Under the pieces are notes generated by a model. The model was not told the origin of the DNA. It searched no databases and worked only from the letters and a program-made list of their open reading frames with translations. The translations under genes and the position numbers were made by a program. Below, one piece after another: positions 1 to 14,187 of a stretch of DNA of 14,187 nt. The stretch spans positions 1-14,187 of the forward strand of contig JAVYME010000028.1 in NCBI GenBank assembly GCA_038736825.1, read 5' to 3'. Positions within the stretch are counted from its first letter, which is position 1. Every line of letters starts with the position of its first letter. Origin of the DNA: Candidatus Iainarchaeum sp. (GTDB lineage: Archaea > Iainarchaeota > Iainarchaeia > Iainarchaeales > DTGL01).

Positions 1-290
1 GCGGTTTTTTTCCCGAACCCAGCGAGTTTTTCAGCAAAAATCCAAAAATTTTTCCTCAAAAAAGGTTCTCCACCCATTATTGTTATCCTTGAAGTGTTTT
101 TTGAAAGACCCCATAGTTCAATAGTTTTAATATAGTCTTCAAGGATTGCATTCAATTGTTCCAATGAAAGCTCTTTTTCAAAATTTTTTTCAGAATAACA
201 GTGCTTGCATTTCAAGTTGCATTTTTCAGTAATATGCCATTGCAAGTGAAACGATTTTGGAATGTAATTCTCACTATCTTGTTTGACCAT
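1..290 (-). CDS. Radical SAM enzyme, N-terminal ~96 codons only (gene continues past the left window edge)
   Basis: Absent from the supplied ORF track because there is no stop inside the window. Manual translation of the reverse strand from the ATG at complement(288..290) gives MVKQDSENYIPKSFHLQWHITEKCNLKCKHCYSEKNFEKELSLEQLNAILEDYIKTIELWGLSKNTSRITIMGGEPFLRKNFWIFAEKLAGFGKKT... It carries a CX3CX2C motif (CNLKCKHC) and a GGEP SAM-binding motif. It lies 16 bp downstream of the 307..1299 gene on the same strand. Confidence 0.8.
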   Translation of the reverse strand, partial: MVKQDSENYIPKSFHLQWHITEKCNLKCKHCYSEKNFEKELSLEQLNAILEDYIKTIELWGLSKNTSRITIMGGEPFLRKNFWIFAEKLAGFGKKT

Positions 291-306
291 GCTCTTTTCC
301 CAAAAT

Positions 307-1299
307 TTACTGTTCTGGCCTGCCAATTGGGATTCGCCCTCTTGGCGATGGCTCTGCATAATTTAGCAATCCAATTTGGCACATCACTTCATCAAGCCTT
401 GAATATCTTTCCTTGAAGAACCGGCTGGCCAACAAATAATCTTCACTGGAATTTATGGGGCTTTCTTGACCACAAAACTGTTTTAAAAGGTAAAAATTGT
501 AGGCAGCGCAAACATTGCCTTTTTCTTTTTTAGCCATGCTTTCAAAAGACTTGCAAAAAATTGGCACAGCCTCGGTGTTTTTGGGTTTGCCGGCAGGAAC
601 TGACTGCAAAAGCAGCCTCAAAATGGTGGCTTTTTTTTTCATTGATTCCAGTGCTTTGCCTGTCTGGCTCGAATACTCTATGTTTATTGCGAGCACTTTT
701 TCAAAAAGTTTTGGGTTGTATGTTGTGCCTAGCTCTCCATAAACTAATTGGCATATTGTGATTCCTAGCACTGCGGGCAAATCGTTTTCTTCCAGCACTT
801 TTTTTGACTCTATTTGTTGCTCCCAATATTGCATTGCACTGGCAAAAGTCTCTTTGGCAAACAGTTCTGTTTTCAAGCCATCAGTGTTGCCTCTTTCTTT
901 AACAAAATAAGCATATTTGGACATGCAATAAGGCATTAAAACAGTGTAAGGTTCGCATTTTTCCAGTTCTAGGTTGTTGCACTCTTTTGCAAAAAAGCCC
1001 TCGGCAATTTTAGCATCATCCTTGTAGTCTTCGCCTTGAACTTGCAAGCCAAAATCATCTCTTAAGACATTTTTGACCACCCTATACTGGTACCAGCCAT
1101 AAGAAGAGCTTTCCGCCTCTGAAAGAAATGCCTTGGGTTCGAGTTCACTTGAAAAATACTGCTTTAACTCAGAGGCAGAGCTTTGCATTTCTGAAAAAAG
1201 CAGGAAAGGGTATAAGAAAAAAGCGAAAACTGCAAAGACGGCTGCCAGCACTATAGCAATTATTAGAAAATTTTTCCGCTTTGAATGTAGTGGCAGCAT
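307..1299 (-). CDS. Membrane-anchored protein of unknown function (one N-terminal TM helix, helical Cys-containing ectodomain)
   Basis: 330-aa ORF with an ATG start at complement(1297..1299). A KRK stretch is followed by the hydrophobic segment FLIIAIVLAAVFAVFAFFLYPFLLF. I recognise no catalytic motif. It is co-directional with, and 33 bp downstream of, the rSAM/SPASM gene. Confidence 0.6.
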   Translation of the reverse strand: MLPLHSKRKNFLIIAIVLAAVFAVFAFFLYPFLLFSEMQSSASELKQYFSSELEPKAFLSEAESSSYGWYQYRVVKNVLRDDFGLQVQGEDYKDDAKIAEGFFAKECNNLELEKCEPYTVLMPYCMSKYAYFVKERGNTDGLKTELFAKETFASAMQYWEQQIESKKVLEENDLPAVLGITICQLVYGELGTTYNPKLFEKVLAINIEYSSQTGKALESMKKKATILRLLLQSVPAGKPKNTEAVPIFCKSFESMAKKEKGNVCAAYNFYLLKQFCGQESPINSSEDYLLASRFFKERYSRLDEVMCQIGLLNYAEPSPRGRIPIGRPEQ

Positions 1300-1332: not shown

Positions 1333-3171
1333 TTATTCCCTCCAAGGGCATTGTGATTTTTTTGAGGTTTTTTTGAATTCAGAATATATCTCGTTTCTGT
1401 CAAAAAATTCGCTTATTTTTGGGCCTTTAACTCCACCACAATATTCAATTTCACCATTTTTTTCTTTGAAGAGTTCAAGGCACTCCAAGCAGTTTTTTGG
1501 AATGAAAAATTCTTCATAGAACTCCTTTTCCTTTTTTGCGTTCGCATCTGTTATTTTGACAGGTCGCGATATCTTGAATATTACCTTGTTTTTCTTCAAT
1601 GAATAAAGAAATGCCTTGAACCGAATTGAATCGCGAATACCAAGCCGGCCCCTGGTAATTGGGCAAAGCACAAAAAGCCTTATTTTTTCCCTGTGTTTTT
1701 TTGACGCCTCAACTATTTTTTTGGCTAGCTTTTCAAGGTCTGCCTTTGCGGGATCAAATTTCAAAAAAACTCCACTGGCTGAGTTCTTGCTGATTTCTGT
1801 TGAGAGTTCGAATTCGCTGAATTGCATGGAATAATAGAGTTTTTCACTCTTTTCCGACAAATAAGGCTTTATTTTTATGACATCGCGTTCCGCCAAATAT
1901 TTCATGAGTTGCAAGGTTTGCGTTTTTCTTTCCAGGCATCGTTCTCTGTCTGGTTTTGCCATATTGTTGTTTTTTTCCAGGTTTTTTAGGGGGCAGCCTC
2001 CCCAGCAAAGCTTGAAATCACAATCATAGCACTCGCTTTTTTTGTAGTAAGAGCGCAATTTTTTGATTTTTTTCCAGTCCATCAAAAATCCCTTTTTTCG
2101 GTTAAAGCAGCCAAGCACAAGTTGTTTCATTCCTTGGTGAATTTTCAGGTCATCTGTGTTTGAGTACATCAGGCAGCCAGAGACAGTTCCATCCGTGCCA
2201 AGGCAAAAATAGTTTCCAACTGAACAATACTGTGTTTTGCCCTTATATTCAAAGTAGTGTTCAACCGCAAGGCGGGATTTTAATCCAAAAGAATCGCAAA
2301 ACTCTTTCAGTTTCATTTGTGAATCTGCGAGCACCGCCCACTTATTGCGCTCTGAAGTTTTTATGAATTCGCAGCCAGCTCCCAGATCGCTAACTGTTGA
2401 GAAAACTATCACTGGGACCTCTAGGTTGTAAAAATATTTGAAGGTTTGCTCTTCTCGACCAACATGGTTTGAGGTAAGCGTGGTTTTTACCATAAATTCC
2501 TTGTTGTTTTTAACCAGTGTTTTTATTGTTTTTTCCACGGTGGCACTGCTCTTTCCGCCATTCCTGAGAGGTCTTTGTCTATTTTGAATTTCAGGCGGGC
2601 CGTCACAGGAAACTTGGAACCTGCCCATTCGATCCGCAATATCGGTTAAAAACTTTGGGTTGGTGGCACCGTTTGTTGAAAATTTGATTCTGGCAATTTT
2701 GAGTTTTTTTTCAATGGAACCCAAAGTTTTTTTCAATAGCGTGGGTTCAGTTGTCTGCTCTCCAGCAGAACTGAACATCACGTGGACTTCCTTGTTTTGT
2801 TGACCAATATATTTAATTCCAGCACTCAAGATTTCCCAATTTGAAGTTTTCTCCTCTCTTTTCTTTTCTTTGCCAAAGCAATATGTGCATCCAAGATTGC
2901 ACTTGCTTGTAATGACTGGCGAAAAAACATTAAAATAGCCTTTTTTGACAAAAGAGGGCTTTTTGTTTTTTGCTAGGAATTTTTTTCCAAGTGCCTCAAA
3001 GGCTTCTTTGTCCATGATGAAAAAGTTGTTTGAATTGCTACAAAAAGCCACCAATCGCCCTTTTTTTTCAAAAAGCAAGTGAAGAAAGGGATTATGTTTT
3101 GCGAAAGCCGCAAATATGTCTCGCTTGCTTTGCAAACAGGCCTGTGTTGCGCCTATTATTTCAACCTTCAA
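1333..3171 (-). CDS. Radical SAM/SPASM-domain peptide maturase (HxsB-like candidate) with a ~190-aa C-terminal extension
   Basis: 612-aa ORF. CX3CX2C motif in SPVITSKCNLGCTYCF. Twitch/SPASM-type auxiliary-cluster motifs: C-x11-G-x4-C (CSVGNYFCLGTDGTVSGC) and CX2CX4CX3C (CYDCDFKLCWGGC), plus a later RERC. The N-terminal ~85 aa before the cluster (LVAFCSNSNNFFIMDKEAFEAL) resembles the substrate-side N-domain common in peptide maturases. The annotated start is TTG (complement of caa at 3169..3171) and the first ATG is codon 53, so the exact start is uncertain. Confidence 0.85.
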   Translation of the reverse strand: MKVEIIGATQACLQSKRDIFAAFAKHNPFLHLLFEKKGRLVAFCSNSNNFFIMDKEAFEALGKKFLAKNKKPSFVKKGYFNVFSPVITSKCNLGCTYCFGKEKKREEKTSNWEILSAGIKYIGQQNKEVHVMFSSAGEQTTEPTLLKKTLGSIEKKLKIARIKFSTNGATNPKFLTDIADRMGRFQVSCDGPPEIQNRQRPLRNGGKSSATVEKTIKTLVKNNKEFMVKTTLTSNHVGREEQTFKYFYNLEVPVIVFSTVSDLGAGCEFIKTSERNKWAVLADSQMKLKEFCDSFGLKSRLAVEHYFEYKGKTQYCSVGNYFCLGTDGTVSGCLMYSNTDDLKIHQGMKQLVLGCFNRKKGFLMDWKKIKKLRSYYKKSECYDCDFKLCWGGCPLKNLEKNNNMAKPDRERCLERKTQTLQLMKYLAERDVIKIKPYLSEKSEKLYYSMQFSEFELSTEISKNSASGVFLKFDPAKADLEKLAKKIVEASKKHREKIRLFVLCPITRGRLGIRDSIRFKAFLYSLKKNKVIFKISRPVKITDANAKKEKEFYEEFFIPKNCLECLELFKEKNGEIEYCGGVKGPKISEFFDRNEIYSEFKKTSKKSQCPWRE

Positions 3172-3237: not shown

Positions 3238-3597
3238 TTAGCTGCAGAAATCTATTGCACAAATCGCCCCGCAACTGTAATGGCTGTAGTGTGATGAGTG
3301 TGAGCTGTGTGATGAGTGTGAGAAGTGTGAGCCGTGTGCTGAGTGTGATGAATGCGAGGAGTGTGATGCGTGGTGTCCGTGTTTTGCAGTGACATTGCCT
3401 GCATTCCAGCTAACACTAAAATAATTTGAGTGTGCGGCTTCGACTTCGGGTAAAAGGTTTAAGATGGAAATCGAGCCCAAAAAGGCACCAATTGAAATCA
3501 TTTTGAATTTTGAAATTCCGCCTTTTTCTTCTATTAAAAAAGAGGACACCTTTCTTTTTATTTCTGGCAGTCTGTTCTTTATTTGTTTTTTCATCAA
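3238..3597 (-). CDS. His-Xaa-Ser repeat peptide (HxsA-like putative RiPP precursor, or a secreted His-rich peptide)
   Basis: 119-aa ORF whose first codon is TTG; the ATG at complement(3592..3594) gives 118 aa. A basic N-terminus (KKQIKNRLPEIKRK) is followed by a signal/TM-like segment MISIGAFLGSISILNLLPEVEA|A. The C-terminal part reads AKHGH-HAS-HSS-HSS-HSA-HGS-HFS-HSS-HSS-HSS-HYS-HYS-CGAICAIDFCS. It sits directly between rSAM genes on the same strand. Confidence 0.8.
   Translation of the reverse strand: MMKKQIKNRLPEIKRKVSSFLIEEKGGISKFKMISIGAFLGSISILNLLPEVEAAHSNYFSVSWNAGNVTAKHGHHASHSSHSSHSAHGSHFSHSSHSSHSSHYSHYSCGAICAIDFCS
3274..3381 (-). repeat. Coding period-3 repeat: HGH plus 11 in-register His-Xaa-Ser/Ala triplets
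   Basis: The plus strand shows imperfect 9/18-bp tandem units (gtgtgatgagtgtgagct x2, then variants). On the coding strand this reads CAC-NNN-TCN/AGC iterated. His is invariant at position 1 of all 12 triplets. Position 3 is Ser in 10 of 11 and Ala in one. Confidence 0.9.
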
Positions 3598-3625: not shown

Positions 3626-4486
3626 TTATTGTTTTGTGGTGATTTTCCGTATTGGCTTGAATTCTTCTTCTCCGGCTAGTGGTGGATAAGAGCGCCAAAT
3701 CCTGCAACATTCGTTTTTTGCTTTGCAATAAAAGCATTTTTTTGCAAATTTTAGTTCTTTTTCCTGTTTTGTAATGCCTTTGGCGTGTTCCCAGTATTTG
3801 TTGCTTATTGTACACAAAGGGAAGTGGAACATTTTCACTTCCACTTTGTTTTTTTTCAGCACTTCAACTGCTTGTTGAACGAAAGGCACCAAGGTTTTAT
3901 AGTGCACAAAGAGGAGTTGCCGGTTAATAAATGCATTGCCAGTGTATTTTAGGTTGATGAAAACCACTCGAAAAACGCCTTTTAGTTCCCTTGCAATGAA
4001 TTCCGCTGTTTTTGCCAAATCTCGATAATTTTGCTTGCATACCAAGACCCTGACTTCTATTGCGAAACCGAGTTTTTGAAGGTTTTTTATTCCTTGAATT
4101 GTTTCGTTCCAGCTTCCACGGATTCCTGTCAGAAAATCGTGGGCTTTTTCTTCATGGCTTAATAGGGGAATGCCGAAAAAGAGGTTTTTGCCAGAAAATT
4201 TTTTGAATTGCATTGCATATTCTTTTTCTGCAAATTTTCTTCCATTGGTTACAATGAAGATTTCTCTTTCAGGGTTTTGTTCTAGAACAAATTCCACTAT
4301 TTGGGAGAGATTGGGTGAAAGAGTTGGTTCGCCTCCTGTTAGTCCAATGCATTCTTCTTCAGGTGTGCTTTTGATTTTTGCTTTTATTTGGTCTGCTGGC
4401 GGGTTTCCAAGCCAGGGCATCTGTCTTGTATCGTAAATGCAGAAAAGGCATTTGCTATTGCATTGAAATGTCACAGGAATGTCCAT
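3626..4486 (-). CDS. Radical SAM enzyme (small, N-terminal cluster; HxsC-like candidate), paralogue of 4487..5365
   Basis: 286 aa. CX3CX2C motif at residues 9-16 (QCNSKCLFC), GLTGGEPTL, VTNGR, and a C-terminal Cys cluster KKCFYCKAKNECC. Its ATG at complement(4484..4486) directly abuts the upstream stop codon (TAAATG). Confidence 0.85.
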   Translation of the reverse strand: MDIPVTFQCNSKCLFCIYDTRQMPWLGNPPADQIKAKIKSTPEEECIGLTGGEPTLSPNLSQIVEFVLEQNPEREIFIVTNGRKFAEKEYAMQFKKFSGKNLFFGIPLLSHEEKAHDFLTGIRGSWNETIQGIKNLQKLGFAIEVRVLVCKQNYRDLAKTAEFIARELKGVFRVVFINLKYTGNAFINRQLLFVHYKTLVPFVQQAVEVLKKNKVEVKMFHFPLCTISNKYWEHAKGITKQEKELKFAKKCFYCKAKNECCRIWRSYPPLAGEEEFKPIRKITTKQ

Positions 4487-5365
4487 TTATTTTCCCTTTA
4501 TTGCTTTGAATTCGTTTTCTCCTTTTTCTTTTAGGTATGCTTTTTCCACGCCAAAACATTTTTTTTCAAGAATGCATTTTTTGCATTCTGCGAGCTTTTT
4601 TTTGCCTTTCAGGATTTGTTTGTCAAGGGAAGTTTTGCCTTCAAACCAGTAAACCTCTGTTTTCAGTTCGCAAACTGTATTGTCAGCCTTTTGCGGGATA
4701 ATGCAAGGCGGCACATTGAGCGCCCAAACCCCGGCACTGCCTTTTTCAGCAATTTCAATGGCTTTCAAGAGATAGGGTGCTGTTTTGGAATACGCTGGCA
4801 CCAAGTGTTTGTTTTGTGAAAGGTTTCCGTCAATGCTTGGAAAGATGAGGCAAAACATTTTTGGCTTGAATGCCAAAACTTTTTTCACTATTGCTGGCAA
4901 TTGTTTGAAGTTGAGGGCATTTATTACAATGTTTGCCCTTATTTCCCCCCCTTTTTCCTTGAAATTTTTAATGCCTTGCATTAATTCTGAAAAACAGCCG
5001 TTCACTTGCGTCAGAAAATCGTGTGTTTCCTTGTCCGCGCCATGAATGGAAAAAATCGCGCTGTTTAATCCGCTTTCAAGCATTTGTTCTGTAAAATTTT
5101 TGTCTGAAAACATTCTACCATTGGTTGTAACGGAAATTTTTTGAAAGCCTTGTTCTTTTGCAAAGTGGACTATTTCAAATATGTCTTTTCGTATGGTGGG
5201 TTCTCCACCTGTAAAGCAAATTTCTTCAGCTCGACCTTTGGCTGAAATAACTTCTTTTTTGACTTGCTCTAATTGCTTGAAATTCCTTGACTTGTGTACA
5301 GAGCAAAAAAGACAGTTATTGTTGCAAGCAGCGCCAAGCACAATTTCAATTTTTGCCAGTCTCAT
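4487..5365 (-). CDS. Radical SAM enzyme (small, N-terminal cluster; HxsC-like candidate), paralogue of 3626..4486
   Basis: 292 aa with an ATG start. CX3CX2C motif (ACNNNCLFC), CFTGGEPTI, TTNGR, HDFLT, QGIKN (the last three are shared with the paralogue), and a C-terminal ECKKCILEKKC motif. Confidence 0.85.
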   Translation of the reverse strand: MRLAKIEIVLGAACNNNCLFCSVHKSRNFKQLEQVKKEVISAKGRAEEICFTGGEPTIRKDIFEIVHFAKEQGFQKISVTTNGRMFSDKNFTEQMLESGLNSAIFSIHGADKETHDFLTQVNGCFSELMQGIKNFKEKGGEIRANIVINALNFKQLPAIVKKVLAFKPKMFCLIFPSIDGNLSQNKHLVPAYSKTAPYLLKAIEIAEKGSAGVWALNVPPCIIPQKADNTVCELKTEVYWFEGKTSLDKQILKGKKKLAECKKCILEKKCFGVEKAYLKEKGENEFKAIKGK

Positions 5366-5399: not shown

Positions 5400-5774
5400 T
5401 TATTCGCCAAGCTGTCTTGCCACAATTTCAAGGCATTGGTTCCTTATGCCTTCTTCGGTTACTTTGTTGCATAAGGCTTTGTCGTTATTCAAAACACCAA
5501 AGCAGTAATTCTTTATGTTTGCGTTGTAAATGTAATTGCAATAATTGTTGTTTCTTGCTTCATAGGCTTCCTGGAAAACGCACCAATCAGATTTTCCGCT
5601 TGCAAGTCCGCTGCACTTGCTCAAATCAAAGCTTGACTCGAGTTGTGGGCAATAAGTATTTGTATTACAATCTGGCTTAGCTTGCAATCCTAAAAAAAAC
5701 CCAGCCAAAAAGAAAACTATTGACGTTAGAACTAAAATTGCAAATCTCTTAAAATCAAAAGCAATTTTTTCCAT
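5400..5774 (-). CDS. Small membrane-anchored/secreted Cys-rich protein, unknown function
   Basis: 124 aa with an ATG start. Hydrophobic segment FAILVLTSIVFFLAGFFLGL, then 10 Cys with a recurring C-x(7-12)-C spacing (YCNYIYNANIKNYCFGVLNNDKALCNKVTEEGIRNQC). It is the first gene of the minus-strand block, 34 bp upstream of the first rSAM gene. Confidence 0.6.
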   Translation of the reverse strand: MEKIAFDFKRFAILVLTSIVFFLAGFFLGLQAKPDCNTNTYCPQLESSFDLSKCSGLASGKSDWCVFQEAYEARNNNYCNYIYNANIKNYCFGVLNNDKALCNKVTEEGIRNQCLEIVARQLGE

Positions 5775-5834
5775 GAAAACCCTATCCTATATGTGTTGTT
5801 TTCCTTTTTAATCTTTTTCAGCCACTTTATTTCC
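5775..5834. promoter_or_regulatory. Divergent intergenic region between the rSAM operon (minus) and the GYPECC gene (plus)
   Basis: It is the only non-coding DNA between the divergently oriented genes, provided the plus-strand gene starts at the ATG at 5835. No specific motif was confidently identified. Confidence 0.3.
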
Positions 5835-6851
5835 ATGCCTTTTGCTGAAAAATCCATTGCAGAGGCAATGGCAAGGCTTTCCAGTGAAAGCCGCGCTTTT
5901 TCTGACAAACAACGACTGAAAAAAGGAAAGTTTTATTATCCGCCATGCATTAAAGGCCATTTTTCTTTGCTCGAACTTTTGGCGCTTAAAAACGGCTTAA
6001 AGCCAGCGGTAAGCAATAAGGTGCCATTTACGCCTGAAGCCTGGCTGGCACTAAAAAAAGGGATTAATGAAATGGGTTTTCTTTGCGGGCACACTAGATT
6101 CAAGTACCTTATAAACACAATCCAAGACCTTTGCGAGCCAATTCCTCTTGATGACCCGCGCCTTGGGGAAGTTTATGCGATTGCAGCCAAAGACTTTGAA
6201 ACCATTAAAAGGGCAGCGGATGCCTATGCCAACGACACAACTGAATTTGGTAGGCTAATGGGTTATCCTGAATGCTGTCTGGCGTTCGGAAAGAGCTTGT
6301 GCAATAATGTTGGAATTAAAAGCAAAGTAGAGCAAGACTATGTTTGGTCGCGCATTTATTTTCGCTCTTATCGCAATTCAACGAACTTTTCCAAGTGGTT
6401 GAATGTTTATTCTGGCTTTGCTTTGATTCATCACATTCCATGCCATTTGAATTGCCCGGAAAGCAAGAAATACGCTCAAACCTTGTACGGTTTGCTGGAA
6501 AAGGAAAACGCAAAACTGGCAAAATTGTATGATTTTTTCATGCACTTGCCAGTATTGTTTTGGAATTGTGCGGACTCGATTTTATTCCAAGGCGAGTTTG
6601 AAAAGGGAGTTTTTCACTACTGGGATTGTTTTCCAAAAATCTCTTCAGATTCATTTTATGTTTCCGCACCAGACTTTTCATTAGCCAAAAGGCTTTCCGG
6701 CTATGCTGAATTAGTCAAAAAAGGCAACAGCCTTAAATTATCAGATAAGTGCATTGGTGTTTTCAAGGACAACAAAAAGATTGGCATTATTCCAAAACAA
6801 TTTGAATTTGAATGCATTCTGGTAAAACCTGACACTGACTTGTCAGAGTAA
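5793..6851 (+). CDS. G[YF]PECC / H-x-PC-x3-C family protein (uncharacterised, putative metal- or Fe-S-binding), divergent paralogue 1
   Basis: The 352-aa track ORF starts at GTG 5793, and the first ATG at 5835 (MPFAEKS...) is the more likely start. Motifs shared with 9469..10362 and 7624..8488: FSLLELLALKNGLKPAVS, GRLMGYPECCLAFGK, HHIPCHLNCPESKKY. Confidence 0.75.
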   Translation: MLFSFLIFFSHFISMPFAEKSIAEAMARLSSESRAFSDKQRLKKGKFYYPPCIKGHFSLLELLALKNGLKPAVSNKVPFTPEAWLALKKGINEMGFLCGHTRFKYLINTIQDLCEPIPLDDPRLGEVYAIAAKDFETIKRAADAYANDTTEFGRLMGYPECCLAFGKSLCNNVGIKSKVEQDYVWSRIYFRSYRNSTNFSKWLNVYSGFALIHHIPCHLNCPESKKYAQTLYGLLEKENAKLAKLYDFFMHLPVLFWNCADSILFQGEFEKGVFHYWDCFPKISSDSFYVSAPDFSLAKRLSGYAELVKKGNSLKLSDKCIGVFKDNKKIGIIPKQFEFECILVKPDTDLSE

Positions 6852-6853
6852 GC

Positions 6854-7075
6854 CTATTTGGAAAGCGCTATTACATTGTTTGAAAACCAGCCAGCAAGTT
6901 CTTCCAAGTCAGTTCCTTTTTCTGGAAAAAATTCAATAAAGGTGAAATGCCCTTTTTTTGATTTTTTGAATTTGATGTTTTTTGGAACAATTTCAAGTGC
7001 TTTTTGCAGGGCTTCTTCAAAATAAATGCCTTCCCTGAATTTCATTCGCACGCTTTTGCGTTTTATTTCAATCAA
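6854..7075 (-). CDS. Small HxsD-like protein (short paralogue of the N-domain of 7079..7567)
   Basis: 73 aa from TTG, or 63 aa from the ATG at complement(7043..7045) (MKFREGIYFEEALQKA...). ...HFTFIEFFPEKGTDLEELAGWFSNNVIAL parallels ...ILVTIKARDKKRGAKALEEIANHFNNELINY of the upstream gene. It lies 3 nt after that gene's stop codon. Confidence 0.5.
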   Translation of the reverse strand: MIEIKRKSVRMKFREGIYFEEALQKALEIVPKNIKFKKSKKGHFTFIEFFPEKGTDLEELAGWFSNNVIALSK

Positions 7076-7078
7076 TGC

Positions 7079-7567
7079 TTACACCTTTGGCTTTTTCAAG
7101 CCCTTGGCTTTTTTTGGAGTCCATGGTTCTGCAATTCCTTCAGGGTCCTTCAAGTAAAGGTCTTCGTCTTCATTTTCAGGCATTCGAATTTTTTTTGCTT
7201 TTTCTTCAAGCACTGGCTCTAAAGGGTTTTCTATTGTTTGCTCGCTTGAAAGGTTTGTTGCCAGTGCTCGCTGGATTATTGCCTCTCTTATTGCTTGGTT
7301 CCTTGCAGCTTGAACTGCATAAACGGAATAATTGATTAATTCGTTGTTGAAATGGTTTGCTATTTCCTCCAACGCCTTTGCTCCTCGTTTTTTGTCTCGC
7401 GCTTTTATTGTCACCAAGATTTCTTTTGCAGGATCTCCGTCCAAGAAAAAATAGGCTTTGTCAAGCAAGACATATGCTGCAGAATAAACAACTTCAAGCG
7501 TGAACACTTTTGGGTTCACTGAAACAATTGCTTTGCCATGTTTTGGAAAGAGCTTAACGTGCTCCAT
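7079..7567 (-). CDS. HxsD-like small protein with an acidic/basic C-terminal tail
   Basis: 162 aa with an ATG start. The pattern VFTLEVVYSAAYVLLDKAYFFLDGD...ILVTIKARD...FNNELINYSVYAVQAARNQAIREAIIQRAL resembles, from memory, the LLNDYxLRE-type signature of the His-Xaa-Ser system protein HxsD. Not verified by HMM search. Confidence 0.5.
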   Translation of the reverse strand: MEHVKLFPKHGKAIVSVNPKVFTLEVVYSAAYVLLDKAYFFLDGDPAKEILVTIKARDKKRGAKALEEIANHFNNELINYSVYAVQAARNQAIREAIIQRALATNLSSEQTIENPLEPVLEEKAKKIRMPENEDEDLYLKDPEGIAEPWTPKKAKGLKKPKV

Positions 7568-7623: not shown

Positions 7624-8488
7624 TTATTCAAATCTGAGGATTTTGGCCGGTTTTTTTATTTCTAGTATTTTTTTATCGCTTTTGAATACTTGGAATCTTA
7701 TATCATCCGTAATAACCTTATCGCCTATTTTTATTTTTTCAAGCACTTTTTTTGGGGTTCTGGTGGGAAACTCAAGAACTGAATCGTATGTGGCTTCGTT
7801 TTCAATTTGATCTTTGCGACTTTCATTAAGAATCACAAAGTCGAGTTGGTTGAAGAAAACAAATGTTTTTTTTAAAGTGTTCTCTATTTCTTTAGCGAAC
7901 TCCGGCATTTCATTTTGCAAAACGTTTAGTTTTTTTCCTGATTTTTATGCTTTCTTTACAGTTAAATGAGCATGGAAAGTGAAAGATAAGAAACATTGCT
8001 TTTTTCCAAATTTCAAAAAATCGTTCTTTATCCCAGCCAGAGCCAATGTTTTTTGAAATCGCTGAGGCTAAGATGTTGGTTTAAAAAGGAAATGGTTTTT
8101 CAGAATTTTCAGCGATTGACCATTCGATTGCTTTGCCCTCTTTGCCAGCCAGGGCGTGCTTTTTTATGCTGCGCACGCAGCATTCAGGGTAACCAAAAAG
8201 TCGGCCGATGTGTTCTCGGTTTTCTGTTTGCTCAGCCAAAACCATTTCTTTAAGTAGGGCAGTGTCTTTTGAGATGTAGAGCACTTTGTTTTTTCCAAGC
8301 CCATGATAGTTTTGGAAATAGTGGATTTTGGCATAAATGTTTTGTCTTGCACATTCTTCGAGGAAGAGATCAATTTGGGTTTGATGTTGAGAACTAAGTA
8401 TAACTCTTGAAATTGGCTTGATATCATACTTTATTCCAAAAAACTCTAAAGGAGTAAATCCGATATTTAATATTCTGGACTCAACCAT
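7624..8488 (-). pseudogene. Disrupted G[YF]PECC family paralogue (in-frame TAA plus 1-nt frameshift)
   Basis: Track ORFs 8081..8488 (N-terminal part, ...GRLFGYPECCVRSIKK...) and 7624..7920 (C-terminal part) align collinearly with the N- and C-terminal parts of the intact 297-aa paralogue. After the TAA at 8081..8083 the same frame continues TNILASAISKNIGSGWDKERFFEIWKKAMFLIFHFPCSFNCKESIKIRKKTKRFAK* (stop at 7910..7912). Removing one base of the T7 run at 7930..7936 restores ...RKKLNVLQNEMPEFAKEIENTLKK, which matches ...GKKYKRVLEKEAPLLAEQAKNALKK. The repaired length of ~287 aa compares with 284 aa for the intact copy. Confidence 0.75.
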
Positions 8489-8539: not shown

Positions 8540-9448
8540 TCACCTTTCTTTCATCATTTTTTTGATCTCTTTAACCATTTTTTTAATATCTTTAGCTTGT
8601 TTTTTTCCAGCACTAGCAAGCGATAAAAACTGGCAAAATTTGAACAAAAGATAGGTTTTTTTTTCAAAAGCGTAATTTTCTCCAATTTTGCCCCCCATTT
8701 CAGCATAAGTTTTCAAAAAATGTTTTGAAAGGTCTGGTTTTACTGCTTTCAATGCGTTTTCAGTGATTGCAACATCAAAAAGGCAGTGACCCAAAAAGGC
8801 GTTTTTCCAGTCAATAACTGCATTGATTTTTCTGGATTTGTTGACTAAAATATTTTCAAGCCACAAGTCTCCATGACAAATGCAAGGATTAACCTTTTCA
8901 GGCAATGGGGTGTTATAAACAAAGAAAAGGATTTTTTTCGCAAAACTTTCTTTCACAATTCCATTTTTCACTGCAATTTGAAGATTTATTTCAATGTTTT
9001 TTCTGACAAACGAACCCCAGCTTTGAGTTCTGTCTTTCCATTCCAAATCTGTTTTTTTGGCTTTGTAGTTGGGCTTTACAGAGTGAAGTTTTGCAAGAAT
9101 TTCAGCAATTTGTTCAATCAAAAATATTCTTTCGGGTTCGCTCATTTTGGCCCATTGCGCTGTAACAGGTGTTCCTTCAACGAATTCAAATTCCAGCAAG
9201 CAAAAATCCGGGGATTTTTTTAAAGAAAAGATTTTTGGCACTGGAAGGTGGTTCTCGAATGCAAATTGCTGGAATGCTTTAGCGCGCAACACTTTTTTTT
9301 TGTCAAACCAAATCCAGCAAACCCTTTTTTTTCCATTTGGCAAAAACACTTTAAACATTGAATTGCTTTTTTTAAGTGGAAAAACTCGGCTTTTTTTTCC
9401 AAAGGCTTTTTTTGCAAAAACAATTTTGCTTTCCAAAGAGTTCATCAT
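8540..9448 (-). CDS. Aminoglycoside-phosphotransferase / choline-kinase fold (protein-kinase-like) phosphotransferase
   Basis: 302 aa with an ATG start. Catalytic-loop signature CHGDLWLENILV and the downstream VIDWKNAFLGHCLFDVA (the HGDLxxxN ... iDWe...D pattern of the APH family). The substrate is not inferable from sequence. Confidence 0.8.
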   Translation of the reverse strand: MMNSLESKIVFAKKAFGKKSRVFPLKKSNSMFKVFLPNGKKRVCWIWFDKKKVLRAKAFQQFAFENHLPVPKIFSLKKSPDFCLLEFEFVEGTPVTAQWAKMSEPERIFLIEQIAEILAKLHSVKPNYKAKKTDLEWKDRTQSWGSFVRKNIEINLQIAVKNGIVKESFAKKILFFVYNTPLPEKVNPCICHGDLWLENILVNKSRKINAVIDWKNAFLGHCLFDVAITENALKAVKPDLSKHFLKTYAEMGGKIGENYAFEKKTYLLFKFCQFLSLASAGKKQAKDIKKMVKEIKKMMKER

Positions 9449-9468: not shown

Positions 9469-10362
9469 TTATTTTTTTAATTCCAAAATTTTTTGCCTGT
9501 TTTTAAAGACAGCGAGTGCTCCATTTTCCGCTTTAATGCGATTGCCTTGCCTGATTTTTTCCAAAATTTTTTTCGAAGTCGTAGTGGGGAATTCAAAAAC
9601 CGATTCATAGAATGCCTCGTTTTCGCTTTTGCCTTCAATGGCATCATTTAATAGAACAAAATTGAAACTTCCAAAATAAACCATTGTTTTCTTTAAAGCG
9701 TTTTTCGCTTGCTCTGCCAACAAAGGCGCCTCTTTTTCCAAAACTCTTTTGTATTTTTTTCCCATTTCAATGCTTTTATTGCAGTTAAAAGAACACGGAA
9801 TATGGTAAATGAAATAAAAGCTTTTGTTTCGTGCCTCTTTCAGGCAATTGCATTCAAGAGCATTTTTTGGCTTGAAATCCGAGGCAGTGTAAAGAACGAA
9901 ATTGTTGTAAAAAGACAAAGGCTTTTTGGAATTTTTTAATACTTCAAATGCAATATTTGACCGGTTTTCCGCCTTTCCGAAAAAAAACTCAATACAGCAT
10001 TCTGGAAAGCCAAAAATCCGCCCAATTTTTTTCACATCACGCGCTTTTTCCGCTTCAATTAATTCTTCAATGGTTTTCATGCGTTTGCAAACATAAAGCA
10101 TTGTGGTGTCGGGCCAAGCCCCCGCAAAATTTTCAAAATATTCCAGTTGCCATTGCAAGCCAAGCCTTTCACATTTTTCCCTGAACTTTTTAAACCGCGT
10201 TCCAAAAGATGCTTCTTTTGGATTAACACTCATTCTAGAAATAGGCTTAACTCCATGCACTAATCCCAAAATTTCCAGTGGCGAAAAACCCATTTCGTCA
10301 CGCCAAGAGAAACAGTTTGCCATAACCGAAAACTCTATCAAACCAATTAAAAAAATAACCAA
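9469..10362 (-). CDS. G[YF]PECC / H-x-PC-x3-C family protein, intact paralogue 2
   Basis: The 297-aa track ORF starts at TTG. The ATG at complement(10321..10323) (MANCFSWRDEMGFSPLEILGLVHGVKPISR, 284 aa) aligns with the start of the pseudogene copy. Motifs: GRIFGFPECCIEFFFGK and YHIPCSFNCNKSIEMGKKY. Confidence 0.8.
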   Translation of the reverse strand: MVIFLIGLIEFSVMANCFSWRDEMGFSPLEILGLVHGVKPISRMSVNPKEASFGTRFKKFREKCERLGLQWQLEYFENFAGAWPDTTMLYVCKRMKTIEELIEAEKARDVKKIGRIFGFPECCIEFFFGKAENRSNIAFEVLKNSKKPLSFYNNFVLYTASDFKPKNALECNCLKEARNKSFYFIYHIPCSFNCNKSIEMGKKYKRVLEKEAPLLAEQAKNALKKTMVYFGSFNFVLLNDAIEGKSENEAFYESVFEFPTTTSKKILEKIRQGNRIKAENGALAVFKNRQKILELKK

Positions 10363-10484
10363 AAGCCTTTTTTTGCAAAAACCAAAAGTGTTTTTTTGCC
10401 AAGCAAACCTTTAAATTAAAAGAATATATTAATAGATACGAGAATTTAACTTGGCATCTCTTAAAGGTTCCCAAGGGAGAAAAA
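10363..10484. promoter_or_regulatory. Divergent intergenic region with an AT-rich TATA-like block and an SD-like GGGAGA before the large surface-protein gene
   Basis: AT-rich block tttaaattaaaagaatatattaatag at ~10409..10436. GGGAGA at 10475..10480 lies 4 nt before the ATG at 10485. Confidence 0.35.
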
Positions 10485-10568
10485 ATGAAACAACAAAATA
10501 GGCAGCACCCTTCAAGGATTTTGTTGTTTATCGCTTTAGCCTTGCTTGCGCCATTTTATTCCTTTGCC
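10485..10568 (+). other. Predicted Sec signal peptide of the large surface protein
   Basis: n-region KQQNRQHPSR, h-region ILLFIALALLAPF, c-region YSFA, with likely cleavage before QTCTG. Confidence 0.6.
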
Positions 10569-13500
10569 CAAACTTGCACTGGCGGTCTTTCTGGGAGCAA
10601 CCTACAAAACTGCACTGGAACAGACTATTCTCCTTGCCATAAATGTGATGTTAACGACATGCAGTTCGAAATAAGGGCACCAGATGGCGTGACAACTAGT
10701 GGTTGGCAGACAATGACTTATTCTACAGGTTCGGGCACATGCTCTGCAGGTTGCGCTGACGAAACTTGGACCAAAAGCTATGGTTATACTTTTTGCCCAC
10801 AAGAAGGCACTTATTCAGCTAGAATAAAAGCTGGCGCTCAAAACAGTTCATCTTATGGTTGGGAGACAAGCGATTGGAACACTTCTTTTTACACTGTAAA
10901 CTGGGATTCTTCTCAAGGTTGGTGCACTTGCAAAACTGGGAGCAGTGCAAACTGGTTTGCAACAGTTTCAGGTGGCAGCAACGGCCAGTGCTGTGGGGAT
11001 GACGGCGCAAACGACAATTTCTATTACCATAGTGCAGAGCCCTCCACTGCAACCTCTCTGGATTGCACTCGTTGCTTGAATGGAACAAAATATGGTCCAA
11101 TAACATTGTATGGCAATGGTTATTTGTCTGGTTCTGGTACCTCTCGAACTTGTTATTATGGAGACATTAATTGCACTGCCGGTTCTGCTGAAAGTGGCAC
11201 TAGCACAATAGTGTATGGCTATGGCCATTGGTCCGGTTCTAGTCCAATAACTGATACAAGCGGGGTTTGCTATTATGGAACGCCTTCTTGTGGGGATGGA
11301 TACTATTCACATGGTTCCTTTGGCACTTATTATGGCAATGGTTATACAAATGGCAATCCTACAACGGATACAAGCAGTCTCTGTTATTATGGGGATATTT
11401 CTTGTTCTAATGGTTTTGCTTCCAATGGTGCCTCAACAACAGTTTATGGCAACGGTTTTGTCTCAGGCACAACATGCTATTATGGCAACTGGGTTTGTGC
11501 AAATGATACTGCAAGCAATGGGGCTAGTTGCACTCTTGCATGTGGTGGTCTTGGCACAAGTTGTTGTCCAACTCAAAACATTTTCCGCAACACAATAACT
11601 TGCTCTGAAAGCGGTTGTGGTTATAGTGATCATGATAGGGATTCTGGAGAAAGCTATTGCATTTCCAACGCGGGTGGTTGCATGGCATTTGTTTGGGATT
11701 CGTTGGGCAACAAGTGCTGTGGTGATGATGGTGCAGGCGACAACTTTTGCACTTTGGGTGGTGGTTCCTGCATAAATGGTTCTTGGAATGCAAACCATTG
11801 TTTTGACGGCATAAAAAATTGTGATGAAACTGCAGTTGACTGCGGTGGAAGCGATTGCTCGGCATGCGTGTCAGATAACAATCCGCCAACAACAACACAT
11901 GATGCCAACCAGGAATGGCAGACAACAAATCAAACTATTACTTTGATGTGCAGTGACGGTTCAGAGGTTGGATCCACAGGTTGTGCTCACACTTATTATT
12001 GCATTGATGATTCTAACACTTGCAATCCCACAATTGAAGGAACCACAATTCAAGTAAGTTGTATTGTTGGCGATGTTAACCGTGTTTTTGTGAGGTTTTA
12101 TTCTATTGACAATGCTAACAATGCAGAGCAAGTAAAAAGTGTTTTTATTAGAATTGACAAGCAAAACCCTGTCACAACTGCAATTGCTCCAACTGATTGG
12201 CAGGATGCAAATACAGCAATAACCCTTTCATGTTCTGATGGCGCTGGGGCTGGTTGTTTTGCTGTCTATTTCCGTGTTGATTCTAATCCGTCAAAAAATG
12301 TTTCTTTTGGTTCTTGGACCAGCTATGAGGCTCCAATAATTTTTTCATCTGATGGAAACTATTTGATAGAGTTTTATTCAAAAGATAATGTGTTTAACAC
12401 TGAAACAACCAATGTGGCGCTTGTTTTAATCGATAAACGCTTTGCTTCTCTGGGTAATGAAAGCCTTTATTCTAGTTATACAGATTATAATGGCGTCATA
12501 GTTGTTCCAATTACAGTGGATGGCAACTACCGAATTGACTATAATTCAACTGATATTATTGGCAACATTGAACAGATTCGCACTGGTTGGGCAGCATTGG
12601 ATAAAACACCGCCTTCAACAACAAATGACTTGAACACTGCTTGGCAGAGACAGAATTTTTCAATAACGCTTTCATGCAGTGATGCAACGTCGGGTTGTGC
12701 TCTCACGCGCTATAGAATTGATTTGGATGACAGCGAAAATATTTCAATGGGTGCTTGGCAAAATTACTCTTCACCCATAAACATTTCCTCAGATGGGAAC
12801 TGGGCAATTGACTATAATTCAATGGATGTTGCAGGCATGCGCGAAAGCATTCGCACGATTTATGCCCTTCTTGACAAAACCGCTCCAATAGTAAGTCATG
12901 ATGCAAACACGGCTTGGGTGAACGAAGATCAGGTAGTGCATTTAACTTCAGTTGATACAACATCTGGCATAAATGCAACTTATTATTGTGTTTCTGATGC
13001 AAACAATTGTATTCCCTCTACTAGTGGCAATATGGTGAATGTTACTTGTACTGCCAATTCAATATGTCACAACTATGTGAGATATTATGCTATTGATAAT
13101 GCAGGCAATCAAAGCAATGTTAGCGCCACAAGCGTTATCAGAATAGATAAAGAAAATCCTCTTACAACAACTGATGCTAATACTCTTTGCCAGAAAACAG
13201 ACCAAAACATCGTGATTTCTTCAAGTGATGGTTCTGGTTCTGGAATTGCTGGCACTTATTATTGTGTTGATGACTCTAATTCTTGCACTCCAAGCACGAG
13301 CGGCACTATAGTGACTGTTTCTTGTGCGACTGGTTCAACTTGTCAAAAGTTTGTTCGGTATCGCTCTCAAGACATTGCTGGCAATACTGAAAGCATTCGC
13401 TCTATTTTGTTAACAATTGACAAGCAGGCGCCTACAACAACAGATGATGCAAACAGTCAATGGCAGAGTGCAAACCAAAGCATTACTTTGACTCCTACTG

Positions 13501-14187
13501 ATGGCTCTGGCTGTGGAGTGCTTGCAACTTATTATTGTGTTGATTCTGACAATTCTTGCACTCCGTCTACAGTTGGTTCTTCTGTTAGTGTTTCTTGTGC
13601 TGAAAACTCTGTTTGTCAGAAATATGTGCGATATTATTCAGTTGACACTGCAGGCAATAGTGAAACAATAAAATCAGTGCTGATAAGGGTTGACAGGCAA
13701 CCTCCAATCACACAACATGATGCAAATACTGCTTGGCGGAATTTTAATCAAACTGTGCATTTTACCCTAAATGATGGTTCTGGTTGTGGCGGGAATGCAA
13801 TATATTATTGCATTGATGACTCAAATTCTTGCAATCCAAACATTTTGGACACTTCGGCAAATATCACGTGTGATGCCAATGCCGTATGCCAAAAATATTT
13901 GCGTTTTAAGGGAATTGACTGTGTTGGCAACCAAGAACAAGTAAGAGCAGTGCTAATAAGAATTGACAAGAATGCCCCCCTAACTTCAAGCAATGCTCCA
14001 ATAAATTGTGTTTCCTCAGACCAACAAATAGCCTTGACTCCGATTGATGGATCTGGCTCAGGAGTGCTTGCAACTTATTATTGTGTTGATTCTGACAATT
14101 CTTGCACTCCGTCTACAGTTGGTTCTTCTGTTAGTGTTTCTTGTGCTGAAAACTCTGTTTGTCAGAAATATGTGCGATATTATTCAG
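10485..14187 (+). CDS. Very large secreted Cys-rich surface/adhesin-like protein with tandem Ig-like (beta-sandwich) repeats; 3' partial (runs off window)
   Basis: Absent from the ORF track because there is no stop in the window. I translated the frame by hand from the ATG at 10485 to 14186 and found no stop (~1234 codons). It begins MKQQNRQHPSRILLFIALALLAPFYSFA|QTCTGG... (signal peptide). Repeats carry the generic ...IDK-x-AP-TTT ... W ... TL ... DGSG ... YYC ... VRYYS-x-D-x-AGN-x-E ... IRIDK pattern typical of bacterial/archaeal Ig-like cell-surface domains. All minus-strand track ORFs in this region are antisense shadows. Confidence 0.85.
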   Translation, partial: MKQQNRQHPSRILLFIALALLAPFYSFAQTCTGGLSGSNLQNCTGTDYSPCHKCDVNDMQFEIRAPDGVTTSGWQTMTYSTGSGTCSAGCADETWTKSYGYTFCPQEGTYSARIKAGAQNSSSYGWETSDWNTSFYTVNWDSSQGWCTCKTGSSANWFATVSGGSNGQCCGDDGANDNFYYHSAEPSTATSLDCTRCLNGTKYGPITLYGNGYLSGSGTSRTCYYGDINCTAGSAESGTSTIVYGYGHWSGSSPITDTSGVCYYGTPSCGDGYYSHGSFGTYYGNGYTNGNPTTDTSSLCYYGDISCSNGFASNGASTTVYGNGFVSGTTCYYGNWVCANDTASNGASCTLACGGLGTSCCPTQNIFRNTITCSESGCGYSDHDRDSGESYCISNAGGCMAFVWDSLGNKCCGDDGAGDNFCTLGGGSCINGSWNANHCFDGIKNCDETAVDCGGSDCSACVSDNNPPTTTHDANQEWQTTNQTITLMCSDGSEVGSTGCAHTYYCIDDSNTCNPTIEGTTIQVSCIVGDVNRVFVRFYSIDNANNAEQVKSVFIRIDKQNPVTTAIAPTDWQDANTAITLSCSDGAGAGCFAVYFRVDSNPSKNVSFGSWTSYEAPIIFSSDGNYLIEFYSKDNVFNTETTNVALVLIDKRFASLGNESLYSSYTDYNGVIVVPITVDGNYRIDYNSTDIIGNIEQIRTGWAALDKTPPSTTNDLNTAWQRQNFSITLSCSDATSGCALTRYRIDLDDSENISMGAWQNYSSPINISSDGNWAIDYNSMDVAGMRESIRTIYALLDKTAPIVSHDANTAWVNEDQVVHLTSVDTTSGINATYYCVSDANNCIPSTSGNMVNVTCTANSICHNYVRYYAIDNAGNQSNVSATSVIRIDKENPLTTTDANTLCQKTDQNIVISSSDGSGSGIAGTYYCVDDSNSCTPSTSGTIVTVSCATGSTCQKFVRYRSQDIAGNTESIRSILLTIDKQAPTTTDDANSQWQSANQSITLTPTDGSGCGVLATYYCVDSDNSCTPSTVGSSVSVSCAENSVCQKYVRYYSVDTAGNSETIKSVLIRVDRQPPITQHDANTAWRNFNQTVHFTLNDGSGCGGNAIYYCIDDSNSCNPNILDTSANITCDANAVCQKYLRFKGIDCVGNQEQVRAVLIRIDKNAPLTSSNAPINCVSSDQQIALTPIDGSGSGVLATYYCVDSDNSCTPSTVGSSVSVSCAENSVCQKYVRYYS
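11151..11500 (+). repeat. Four degenerate ~31-39-aa coding repeats, each starting C-Y-Y-G-x3-C
   Basis: In-frame TG[TC]-TAT-TAT-GG[AGC] at 11151, 11268, 11382 and 11475 (CYYGDINC, CYYGTPSC, CYYGDISC, CYYGNWVC), separated by Gly/Ser/Thr/Tyr-rich linkers containing (V/Y)YGNG(Y/F). Confidence 0.7.
13515..13641 (+). repeat. 127-bp perfect direct repeat, copy 1
   Basis: ggagtgcttgcaacttattattgtgttgattctgacaattcttgcactccgtctacagttggttcttctgttagtgtttcttgtgctgaaaactctgtttgtcagaaatatgtgcgatattattcag is identical to 14061..14187 (offset 546 bp = 2 repeat units). Confidence 0.9.
14061..14187 (+). repeat. 127-bp perfect direct repeat, copy 2 (truncated by the window end)
   Basis: Base-for-base identical to 13515..13641. 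The identity begins after a t/a mismatch at 13514/14060 and is still running at the last base of the window. Confidence 0.9.

Follow-up and report, generated by a model that had tools for sequence, protein, structure and literature searches.

What kind of protein carries an unbroken series of His-Xaa-Ser (HxS) triplets followed by a short cysteine-rich tail, and how is such a protein related to the radical S-adenosylmethionine (rSAM) enzymes encoded next to it? The question is raised by a small gene in a 14,187-bp contig, JAVYME010000028.1, which in its entirety is the window analyzed here and which belongs to a metagenome-assembled genome (MAG) of a DPANN archaeon (Candidatus Diapherotrites). 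A sequence-only reading of the window pointed to the repeats, the tail and the neighboring rSAM genes but overlooked the identity of the His-Xaa-Ser (Hxs, or HXS) system. The peptide is a divergent member of the HxsA family, which has already been catalogued, and does not represent a new peptide class; with a probability of roughly 70%, we consider it to be the HxsA component of a divergent HXS system of DPANN archaea (Diapherotrites/Iainarchaeia). The kind of system is, accordingly, already known and catalogued, and what is new is the DPANN setting, the minimal HxsA that lacks a peptidoglycan (PG)-binding domain, the long repeat arrays, the linkage to an A24 peptidase, and the module that consists of the Cys tail and an accessory SPASM enzyme. 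The gene and its parts are as follows.

3238..3597, minus strand: hxsA-like precursor/effector gene, 119 aa from a TTG start, 118 aa from the ATG at 3594.
3502..3597, minus strand: basic N-region of the leader, residues 1-32 (...LPEIKRKVSSFLIEEKGGISKFK), with a near-invariant E-x-G motif that here is K25-G26 (alignments A1 and A2).
3436..3501, minus strand: hydrophobic segment with a V-x-A|A signal-peptidase-type site, residues 33-54 (MISIGAFLGSISILNLLPEVEA).
3382..3435, minus strand: spacer AHSNYFSVSWNAGNVTAK, residues 55-72, kept in alignment A1.
3274..3381, minus strand: His-Xaa-Ser array of 12 in-register His triplets (HGH and 11 Hx[S/A]), ending in HYS HYS.
3238..3273, minus strand: Cys-rich tail CGAICAIDFCS and the stop codon, an optional module.

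The translation, MKKQIKNRLPEIKRKVSSFLIEEKGGISKFKMISIGAFLGSISILNLLPEVEAAHSNYFSVSWNAGNVTAKHGH-HAS-HSS-HSS-HSA-HGS-HFS-HSS-HSS-HSS-HYS-HYS-CGAICAIDFCS, is exactly the one from which the sequence-only reading had started, including the basic and then hydrophobic N-terminus that ends in VEA|A and the C-x3-C-x4-C arrangement of the tail. Ten of the 11 triplets are HxS and one is HxA; the HGH that precedes them is in the same register, which brings the number of His residues at a period of three to 12. Shuffling the protein 100,000 times with its composition preserved produced in-register His runs of at most 8, never of 12. At the DNA level, the array is a 9-bp tandem repeat (9.4 copies, 3288-3372) that has diverged to 71% matches, so it is not a fresh product of slippage. 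The N-terminal part is predicted to be an export-type leader, as had been proposed; the hydropathy maximum of the hydrophobic segment is 1.82, and AlphaFold2, supplied with the family alignment, predicts helices at residues 3-20 (pLDDT ~83) and 29-47 and a beta-hairpin at 59-72, leaving the repeat array and the tail without confident structure (pLDDT below 50). The predicted mature core of 65 aa would contain 14 His, three Cys, one K/R and one D/E. A Pfam scan of the peptide matched no domain and, in particular, no PG-binding domain. A 54-aa open reading frame (ORF) in another frame, 3252-3416 on the minus strand, overlaps the repeat array and was rejected as a frame artefact of the array.

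Comparison of the peptide with the curated HxsA models (TIGR03979, NF038296, NF038309 and NF038313) connected it to the HxsA3 and HxsA4 subfamilies. The best scores were obtained with HxsA3 (NF038309), at 34.9 bits (cutoff 65) over model positions 2-79 of 81, and with HxsA4 (NF038313), at 31.8 bits (cutoff 55) over model positions 2-90 of 93; HxsA2 followed with 17.8 bits (cutoff 48). For all 15 family members tested, HxsA4 or HxsA3 was the best match, and three relatives exceed the HxsA4 cutoff of 55, namely, those designated L025 (111.5 bits), P0014 (92.9) and L020 (66.1). The resemblance to HxsA4 and HxsA3, which occur with the 'rare' HxsC4, extends over the entire layout, that is, the basic IPKIKKxISSFLxxEEGxISK region, the hydrophobic segment, A-x-A, H-T-N and the C-terminal HxS array, whereas the Cys tail is not part of these models. 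Because the HxsA3/HxsA4 scores of the peptide (32-35 bits) are below the cutoffs, annotation pipelines call it hypothetical; such is the annotation in NCBI, where the start is placed one codon later and the product is 118 aa long (P0001). A run of PADLOC 2.0, which has no HXS models, gave just generic, viperin-level rSAM similarity.

The genes around hxsA point in the same direction. The following three, together with hxsA and the gene of a 612-aa rSAM/SPASM enzyme, form one operon.

3626..4486, minus strand: HxsC-type rSAM enzyme, 286 aa, directly upstream of hxsA; TIGR03977, 207.8 bits, E 1.5e-61.
4487..5365, minus strand: HxsC paralogue, an HxsC4-like rSAM enzyme of 292 aa; HxsC4 (NF038332), 131.3 bits (cutoff 500); HxsC, 110.4 bits.
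7079..7567, minus strand: HxsD, 162 aa; TIGR03976, 55.5 bits, above the cutoff of 50.

The hxsA gene is set between the HxsC and SPASM genes with gaps of 28-66 bp and starts 28 bp downstream of the HxsC-type gene, the arrangement of a small repeat protein beside its maturases by which HXS systems are recognized. For the HxsC-type enzyme, TIGR03977 is the best family match by far, with model positions 31-289 of 292 covered, and alignment with residues 113-373 of Aeromonas HxsC, a region that takes in the catalytic core and the C-terminal CxxC...CC motif, shows 26% identity; no record matched the window HxsC protein in an exact look-up. Orthologues of HxsC (40-54% identity) are found in each related locus compared, and the HxsC paralogue is present there in several copies. 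Orthologues of HxsD in the related loci show 46-66% identity and retain the motif F..EL.NY..Y....RE, which corresponds to LLNDYxLRE. The archaeal HxsD proteins are 143-195 aa long, compared to ~96 aa in Aeromonas, and end, after an acidic linker, in a conserved DP-x-GI-x-x-PW sequence that is absent from canonical HxsD.

This context bears directly on another explanation of a His-rich peptide, offered as an alternative in the sequence-only reading, under which the product is exported without modification and binds Ni, Zn or Cu, the rSAM genes nearby being unrelated to it. The 14 His and three Cys residues in a 65-aa core would suit metal binding, and cleavage at V-x-A|A would leave A-H-S-N as the mature N-terminus. 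However, the gene is tightly embedded between the genes of HxsC and the SPASM enzyme, this linkage is conserved across lineages, and, in E. coli, processing and activity of the homologous protein both depend on the rSAM enzymes (PMC13128918). With HxsD and HxsC-type maturases on its flanks, in an arrangement that recurs in ~30 loci, the peptide, judging by these sequence comparisons, would be a partner of the substrate type for rSAM enzymes, as had been suspected, and an unmodified metal-binding peptide appears highly improbable.

The HXS system was reportedly catalogued by Haft and Basu in 2011 in TIGRFAMs/NCBIfam (TIGR03976-03979). As cited in subsequent papers, it was these authors who defined the system in silico (Haft and Basu 2011, as cited in PMC9062424 and PMC13128918). 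In E. coli, HXS is an antiphage system that blocks the entry of phage DNA (Li et al., Nat Commun 2026, PMC13128918): HxsC binds HxsD, the non-canonical N-terminal cleavage of HxsA requires HxsB, HxsC and HxsD, a +8 Da modification is placed on the last repeat, and the mature HxsA is held in the periplasm through its PG-binding domain (PMC13128918). Of all HXS systems, 99.7% were assigned to Pseudomonadota, with the gene order HxsD-B-C-A (PMC13128918).

The archaeal system shares with the canonical one an exported-type protein (in this case, by prediction) with in-register HxS triplets that end in HYS, an HxsD and an HxsC-type rSAM enzyme encoded alongside, and an HxsB that passes the cutoff in sister loci; N-terminal processing linked to the maturases is counted among the likenesses as well. 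In Aeromonas, HxsA reads HRSHRSHSSHRSHSSHRSHYS, the sequence ...GHRSHRSHSSHRSHSSHRSHYSGYG... being followed by the PG-binding domain, and the terminal HYS is common to the window peptide and many of its archaeal relatives. The differences are substantial. The host is a DPANN archaeon rather than one of the Pseudomonadota; the window peptide, at 119 aa, is much shorter than canonical HxsA (~190-214 aa) and lacks the PG-binding domain but contains 12 triplets, and up to 31 in relatives, compared to 5-7; the middle residues are S, A, G, F or Y and not R; and the leader is different, longer and conserved. The window HxsC lacks the N-terminal ~108 aa, HxsD carries the C-terminal DPxGIxxPW extension, and the archaeal system includes parts that are extra to the canonical one, namely, HxsC paralogues, an A24 peptidase, the Cys tail and a dedicated SPASM enzyme.

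Is the window an isolated case? A search with the peptide yielded 17 homologues, and the leader alignment, scanned against species-representative genomes and metagenomes, brought in further loci, from Iainarchaeia (Diapherotrites), Aenigmatarchaeota, Woesearchaeota, Nanoarchaeota, Altiarchaeota and one bacterium of the Elusimicrobia; a profile of the leader alone, run against 1.84 billion representatives, found 599 clusters (E <= 1e-3). Of the 165 family sequences collected, 125 contain three or more in-register His triplets. The conserved leader can be written as IPKIKKxISSFLxEE[KR]GxISK, a hydrophobic stretch, V-x-A|A and H-[ST]-N; the E-x-G motif recurs across the superfamily, and V/A-x-A followed by H-[ST]-N is kept in the homologues. 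Some 30 related DPANN loci have HxsD, HxsC and HxsA in common: orthologues of HxsD and HxsC lie beside hxsA in every locus with enough context, and the linkage of hxsA to the maturases is maintained in five archaeal phylum-level lineages and one bacterium. In two cases, one MAG contains two separate HXS loci with different HxsA tails (L001 and L003 in GCA_026396995.1, L010 and L013 in JAZDDY01). In the related loci, as many as nine rSAM genes fit within 20 kb, which, for DPANN archaea with their reduced genomes, is a large investment. In L035, the gene caller passed over hxsA (2189-2641, plus strand) in favor of a spurious antisense ORF of 50 aa lying across the repeat, so that the annotation of HxsA genes in public data is probably incomplete.

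Of the features by which the sequence-only reading had defined the peptide, both the 11 triplets and the Cys tail are present in the window, but neither the number nor the tail is conserved in homologues. The reading itself had held that loss of repeat number and register among homologues would signify low-complexity drift, and here the two parts of the proposition diverge: the number varies from 4 to 31, whereas the register is kept and the His and Ser of the triplets are invariant. Two pairs of near-identical loci differ in the number of triplets, L008 (17) from L009 (19), and L026 from L027. Such unequal counts in near-identical loci imply that arrays expand and contract on short time scales, and the array behaves as a selected multivalent repeat, the length of which drifts.

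These observations are also relevant to the class to which the peptide had been tentatively assigned. As a triceptide-like poly-cyclophane RiPP (a peptide made by the ribosome and modified after translation), it would carry one ring per H-x-S triplet (His C2 to Ser C-beta), up to 11-12 rings, and act as a secreted natural product rather than as an immune effector. Rings in His-X-X motifs are real chemistry, formed by HaaB on HAA, YhhB on HNR and HtkB on HTK (PMC11499958); as in triceptides, a repeated aromatic/His-X-X motif lies near rSAM/SPASM enzymes, and the His and Ser that are fixed at positions 1 and 3 around a free middle residue have the appearance of a motif recognized by an enzyme triplet by triplet. 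The leader with hypervariable C-terminal cores resembles RiPP precursor families, and the +8 Da of E. coli HxsA was searched as components of +12 and -2.016, so -2 Da cross-links may be part of it. Nevertheless, the enzymes of this system are outside the HaaB, YhhB and HtkB families, and none, in the window or in the related loci, approaches a curated cyclophane-synthase cutoff: the 612-aa enzyme scores 36.7 bits against YhhB (cutoff 445), 39.8 against GrrM/OscB (310) and 45.2 against AmcB (425), and the archaeal HxsB proteins reach 54-68 bits with the cyclophane-synthase models. The HxsA chemistry that has been measured is a single +8 Da change, confined to the last repeat in E. coli, and not -2 Da per triplet (PMC13128918). 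A count of 4 to 31 repeats that varies even between near-identical loci fits a multivalent array and would be unusual for a defined polycyclic product. On balance, the assignment to triceptides does not hold up well, and we regard it as unlikely.

Two expected components of an HXS system, or of this version of it, are not found on the 14-kb contig, namely, HxsB and the A24 (prepilin-type) aspartyl peptidase. The sole SPASM enzyme of the window scores only 48.5 bits with the HxsB model TIGR03978 (cutoff 370). By contrast, HxsB is found at 400-448 bits in L001, L003, L004, L006 and L007 and is recognizable in most other loci; the archaeal HxsB is 35% identical to the annotated Aeromonas HxsB. 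Almost always, HxsB or HxsD adjoins an A24 peptidase that keeps both of its catalytic Asp residues (e.g., L006, 8464-9501, and L007, 15687-16790); about 14 archaeal loci show this pairing, and Woesearchaeota and Nanoarchaeota share the gene order A24-HxsD-HxsB-HxsA. The four loci with the closest synteny to the window (L007, L009, L012 and L016) have the HxsB-A24 pair 6-8 kb beyond hxsA, on the opposite strand. Since the contig ends 3.2 kb beyond hxsA, the lack of HxsB and A24 here is most simply explained as a contig-end effect. Given its position, the A24 peptidase is a candidate for the enzyme behind the unexplained N-terminal cleavage of HxsA.

The same peptidase brings to mind pilins, and the peptide could be cast as a pilin-like surface filament or anchor, with a class III signal cut after K25-G26 by A24, the helix serving as the mature N-terminus, and the His array and tail displayed for host attachment or metal capture. 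In the archaeal clade, the near-invariant Gly is preceded by K/R, as it is in archaeal prepilins; the linkage and gene order just described would be appropriate for such a protein; several loci are flanked by giant surface proteins; and other members of the family possess C-terminal tail-fibre-type S74 or Hint domains. In the prepilin consensus (FlaFind), the residues that follow K-G are not polar or charged. Known pilins become hydrophobic at once, but the six residues that follow the putative cut, GISKFK (+1 to +6), are polar or charged, and a strict prepilin reading is weakened for this reason. Furthermore, distant members of the family have E, not K/R, at -2, an A24 peptidase is missing from the bacterial HxsA4 locus L025, no A24 gene lies within the window, and the conserved V-x-A|A after the helix points to ordinary removal by signal peptidase. 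A pilin-like role is thus improbable, somewhat more so than a triceptide.

We now return to HxsA and its tail. The enzyme encoded on the other side of hxsA can be described as follows.

1333..3171, minus strand: accessory rSAM/SPASM maturase, 612 aa, downstream of hxsA; its N-terminal domain may bind the peptide, and it has a conserved C-terminal extension.

This protein passes the cutoff of the SPASM domain model TIGR04085 (28.4 bits, cutoff 27), and its best NCBIfam match is PapB, at 71.9 bits (cutoff 340), with SCIFF at 28.4 bits (cutoff 425). The invariant Cys residues are 91/95/98, 316/333/381/384/393/412 and 561/564/578; they include those for the rSAM and SPASM clusters, and the last three are carried by the conserved ~180-aa C-terminal extension. 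The AlphaFold2 model (pLDDT 89.6) has as its nearest solved fold CteB (5WHY), a sactisynthase that forms thioethers, with a TM-score of 0.70 over 462 columns at 18% identity, anSME being next; a PDB sequence search found just anSME (E 3.6e-4) and was less informative than the fold search. The family includes ~25 full-length proteins from Diapherotrites-type contigs. As in CteB/SCIFF and PapB, the N-terminal domain is joined to an rSAM core and SPASM domain, and the presence of the enzyme tracks a Cys-rich C-terminal core, but, in contrast to sacti- and ranthipeptide maturases, it scores far under the PapB and SCIFF cutoffs. The substrates of PapB show a Cys-x-Asp/Glu pattern; the archaeal tails have no fixed Cys spacing, and this pattern is found in some of them only. 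The possibility that the 612-aa enzyme is itself the HxsB was rejected because L001, L007, L009, L012, L013 and L016 encode a true HxsB in addition to an orthologue of this enzyme.

The tails of HxsA are modular, ranging from a single Tyr/Trp, the commonest form, to GGWC, Cys-rich tails (up to 20 Cys), Hint/mini-intein domains and S74-type domains; the Cys tail is absent in many relatives, and where it is present, its spacing varies. The 612-aa enzyme is encoded in all 12 lineages with a Cys tail (the window, L001, L007, L008/L009, L010, L012, L013, L016, L026/L027, L034, L035 and L036), downstream of hxsA and mostly directly adjacent to it, and in none of the 11 lineages without one, a terminal GGWC alone being counted among the latter. 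The co-occurrence gives a Fisher p of ~1e-5 that is uncorrected for phylogeny and is inflated by shared ancestry, since all the loci with the accessory enzyme form one archaeal clade, a reservation that counts against our interpretation. A cleaner comparison is provided by the sister pair L003 and L013, in which the leaders are nearly identical and the Cys tail and the enzyme are both found only in L013. This pattern, together with the CteB-like predicted fold, supports the earlier suggestion of another modification site in the Cys tail, which would be served by a separate rSAM enzyme. Hint/mini-intein domains, with the N- and C-terminal splicing motifs of inteins, come straight after the HxS array in L019 (9995-10681), L030 (1867-2700), P0019, P0098 and P0143, and the S74-type tail-fibre chaperone domain is found in P0011, P0036, P0043 and L021; this suggests that the Hint and S74 tails are self-cleaving C-terminal modules.

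How might such a system work? In the cytoplasm, the N-region of the leader would be bound by the HxsC-HxsD pair and by HxsB, the gene of which is expected just past the left end of the contig, beside that of the A24 peptidase. HxsB, HxsC and HxsD would then place a radical modification on at least one HxS triplet, by analogy with E. coli the terminal one, of the HYS type, and the 612-aa CteB-like SPASM enzyme would separately modify the Cys tail, probably by introducing Cys-derived thioether cross-links. The leader could be cut off by the A24 peptidase at the conserved [KR]-G or, alternatively, by signal peptidase at V-x-A|A, after which the His-rich core would be displayed at the cell envelope or released from it. 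The protein is most likely matured by rSAM enzymes, exported and active at the envelope as a homologue of the antiphage HXS effector of E. coli, and its role, to judge by the homology with E. coli HXS, most likely would be that of an envelope-level barrier against viruses.

Several observations weigh against the assignment to an archaeal HXS system with this function. The peptide is under every curated HxsA cutoff, with TIGR03979, the canonical HxsA model, unmatched in the NCBIfam scan; the HxsC-type enzyme is below the TIGR03977 cutoff of 267.9 and is devoid of the ~108-aa N-terminal domain of canonical HxsC; and for HxsB and A24, presence is derived from synteny alone. The literature that we searched contained no paper on HxsA3, HxsA4 or archaeal HXS and gave no chemistry or phenotype for any HxsA3/HxsA4-type peptide. 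The model proposed for E. coli needs basic HxS repeats that bind DNA, but the core of the window peptide has only one K/R and one D/E against 14 His. Moreover, archaea have neither peptidoglycan nor a periplasm of the E. coli kind. With so few basic residues and no PG-binding domain, the electrostatic DNA-binding model is not simply transferable, and the chemistry of the effector may be different, for example, pH-dependent or metal-dependent binding through His.

A broader view of the family is a more speculative matter. In DPANN archaea and a few bacteria, the HxsA3/HxsA4-type leader might serve as the common platform of numerous mini-proteins that are exported and matured by rSAM enzymes, the leader being cut by a dedicated A24 peptidase, the array modified by HxsB, HxsC and HxsD, and the function tuned by interchangeable C-terminal modules, namely, a single Tyr or Trp, Cys-rich tails that a CteB-like SPASM enzyme of their own would cross-link, Hint/intein domains and S74 domains. 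We put this forward as a tentative idea that is more doubtful than the assignment to HXS; if true, it would imply a modular archaeal system of envelope defence or attachment, with two chemically distinct rSAM modifications in one peptide.

The function of HXS was assigned only in 2026, and the system was then described as nearly confined to Pseudomonadota. The locus described here and its ~30 relatives represent a much-elaborated version in genome-reduced DPANN archaea, extending over 15-20 kb. Three experimental leads emerge: the A24 peptidase is a candidate protease for the N-terminal cleavage of HxsA; the peptide is a natural two-module substrate in which the chemistry of the Cys tail is genetically separable from that of the HxS repeats; and a minimal HxsA without the PG-binding domain may be reconstituted more easily than its E. 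coli counterpart, which is insoluble. Should the archaeal system be antiviral as well, it would be a rare case of envelope-level defence that is common to bacteria and archaea.

The remaining genes of interest in the window are listed below.

3..362, minus strand: fourth rSAM gene, N-terminal part, truncated where the contig ends; the SPASM rSAM protein of L007 (13399-14523) shows 54% identity to it.
5400..5774, minus strand: membrane-anchored Cys-rich protein, 124 aa, within the operon.
5793..6851, plus strand: DUF483 protein (GYPECC motif), with a Pfam DUF483 match below the cutoff; a recurrent neighbor of archaeal HXS loci.
6854..7075, minus strand: small HxsD-related protein, 73 aa; HxsD_rel (NF038315), 19.6 bits, E 8e-4, cutoff 41.

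A small gene in tandem after hxsD is found also in L001, L003, L004 and L007. Weak homologues of the 124-aa protein are encoded next to hxsA in L001 and also in L008, and the operon of the window includes a second membrane-anchored protein of 330 aa (307-1299, minus strand). The window contains three DUF483 genes with GYPECC and HIPC..C motifs, at 5793-6851 (plus strand), at 9469-10362 (minus strand) and, in the form of two ORFs that resemble a pseudogene, at 8081-8488 and 7624-7920 (minus strand). A PDB sequence search with the DUF483 protein returned nothing meaningful and no solved relative. DUF483 genes are present also in the HXS loci L001, L004, L007, L008, L012, L015, L016, L026, L028 and L029; in L012 and L016, the gene is inside the operon, between two HxsC-like rSAM genes. 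A phosphotransferase of the APH family (8540-9448, minus strand) is paired with a DUF483 gene, and the same pair is seen in L007 (805-2642); a kinase beside a Ser-rich peptide is suggestive, the pair being found in just two loci. Finally, a giant secreted protein, rich in Cys and longer than 1,276 aa (10359-14186, plus strand), with weak similarity to Big_3_4 alone, runs off the contig, and giant surface proteins are encoded also beside L001 (2,366 aa), L006 (5,524 aa) and L036.

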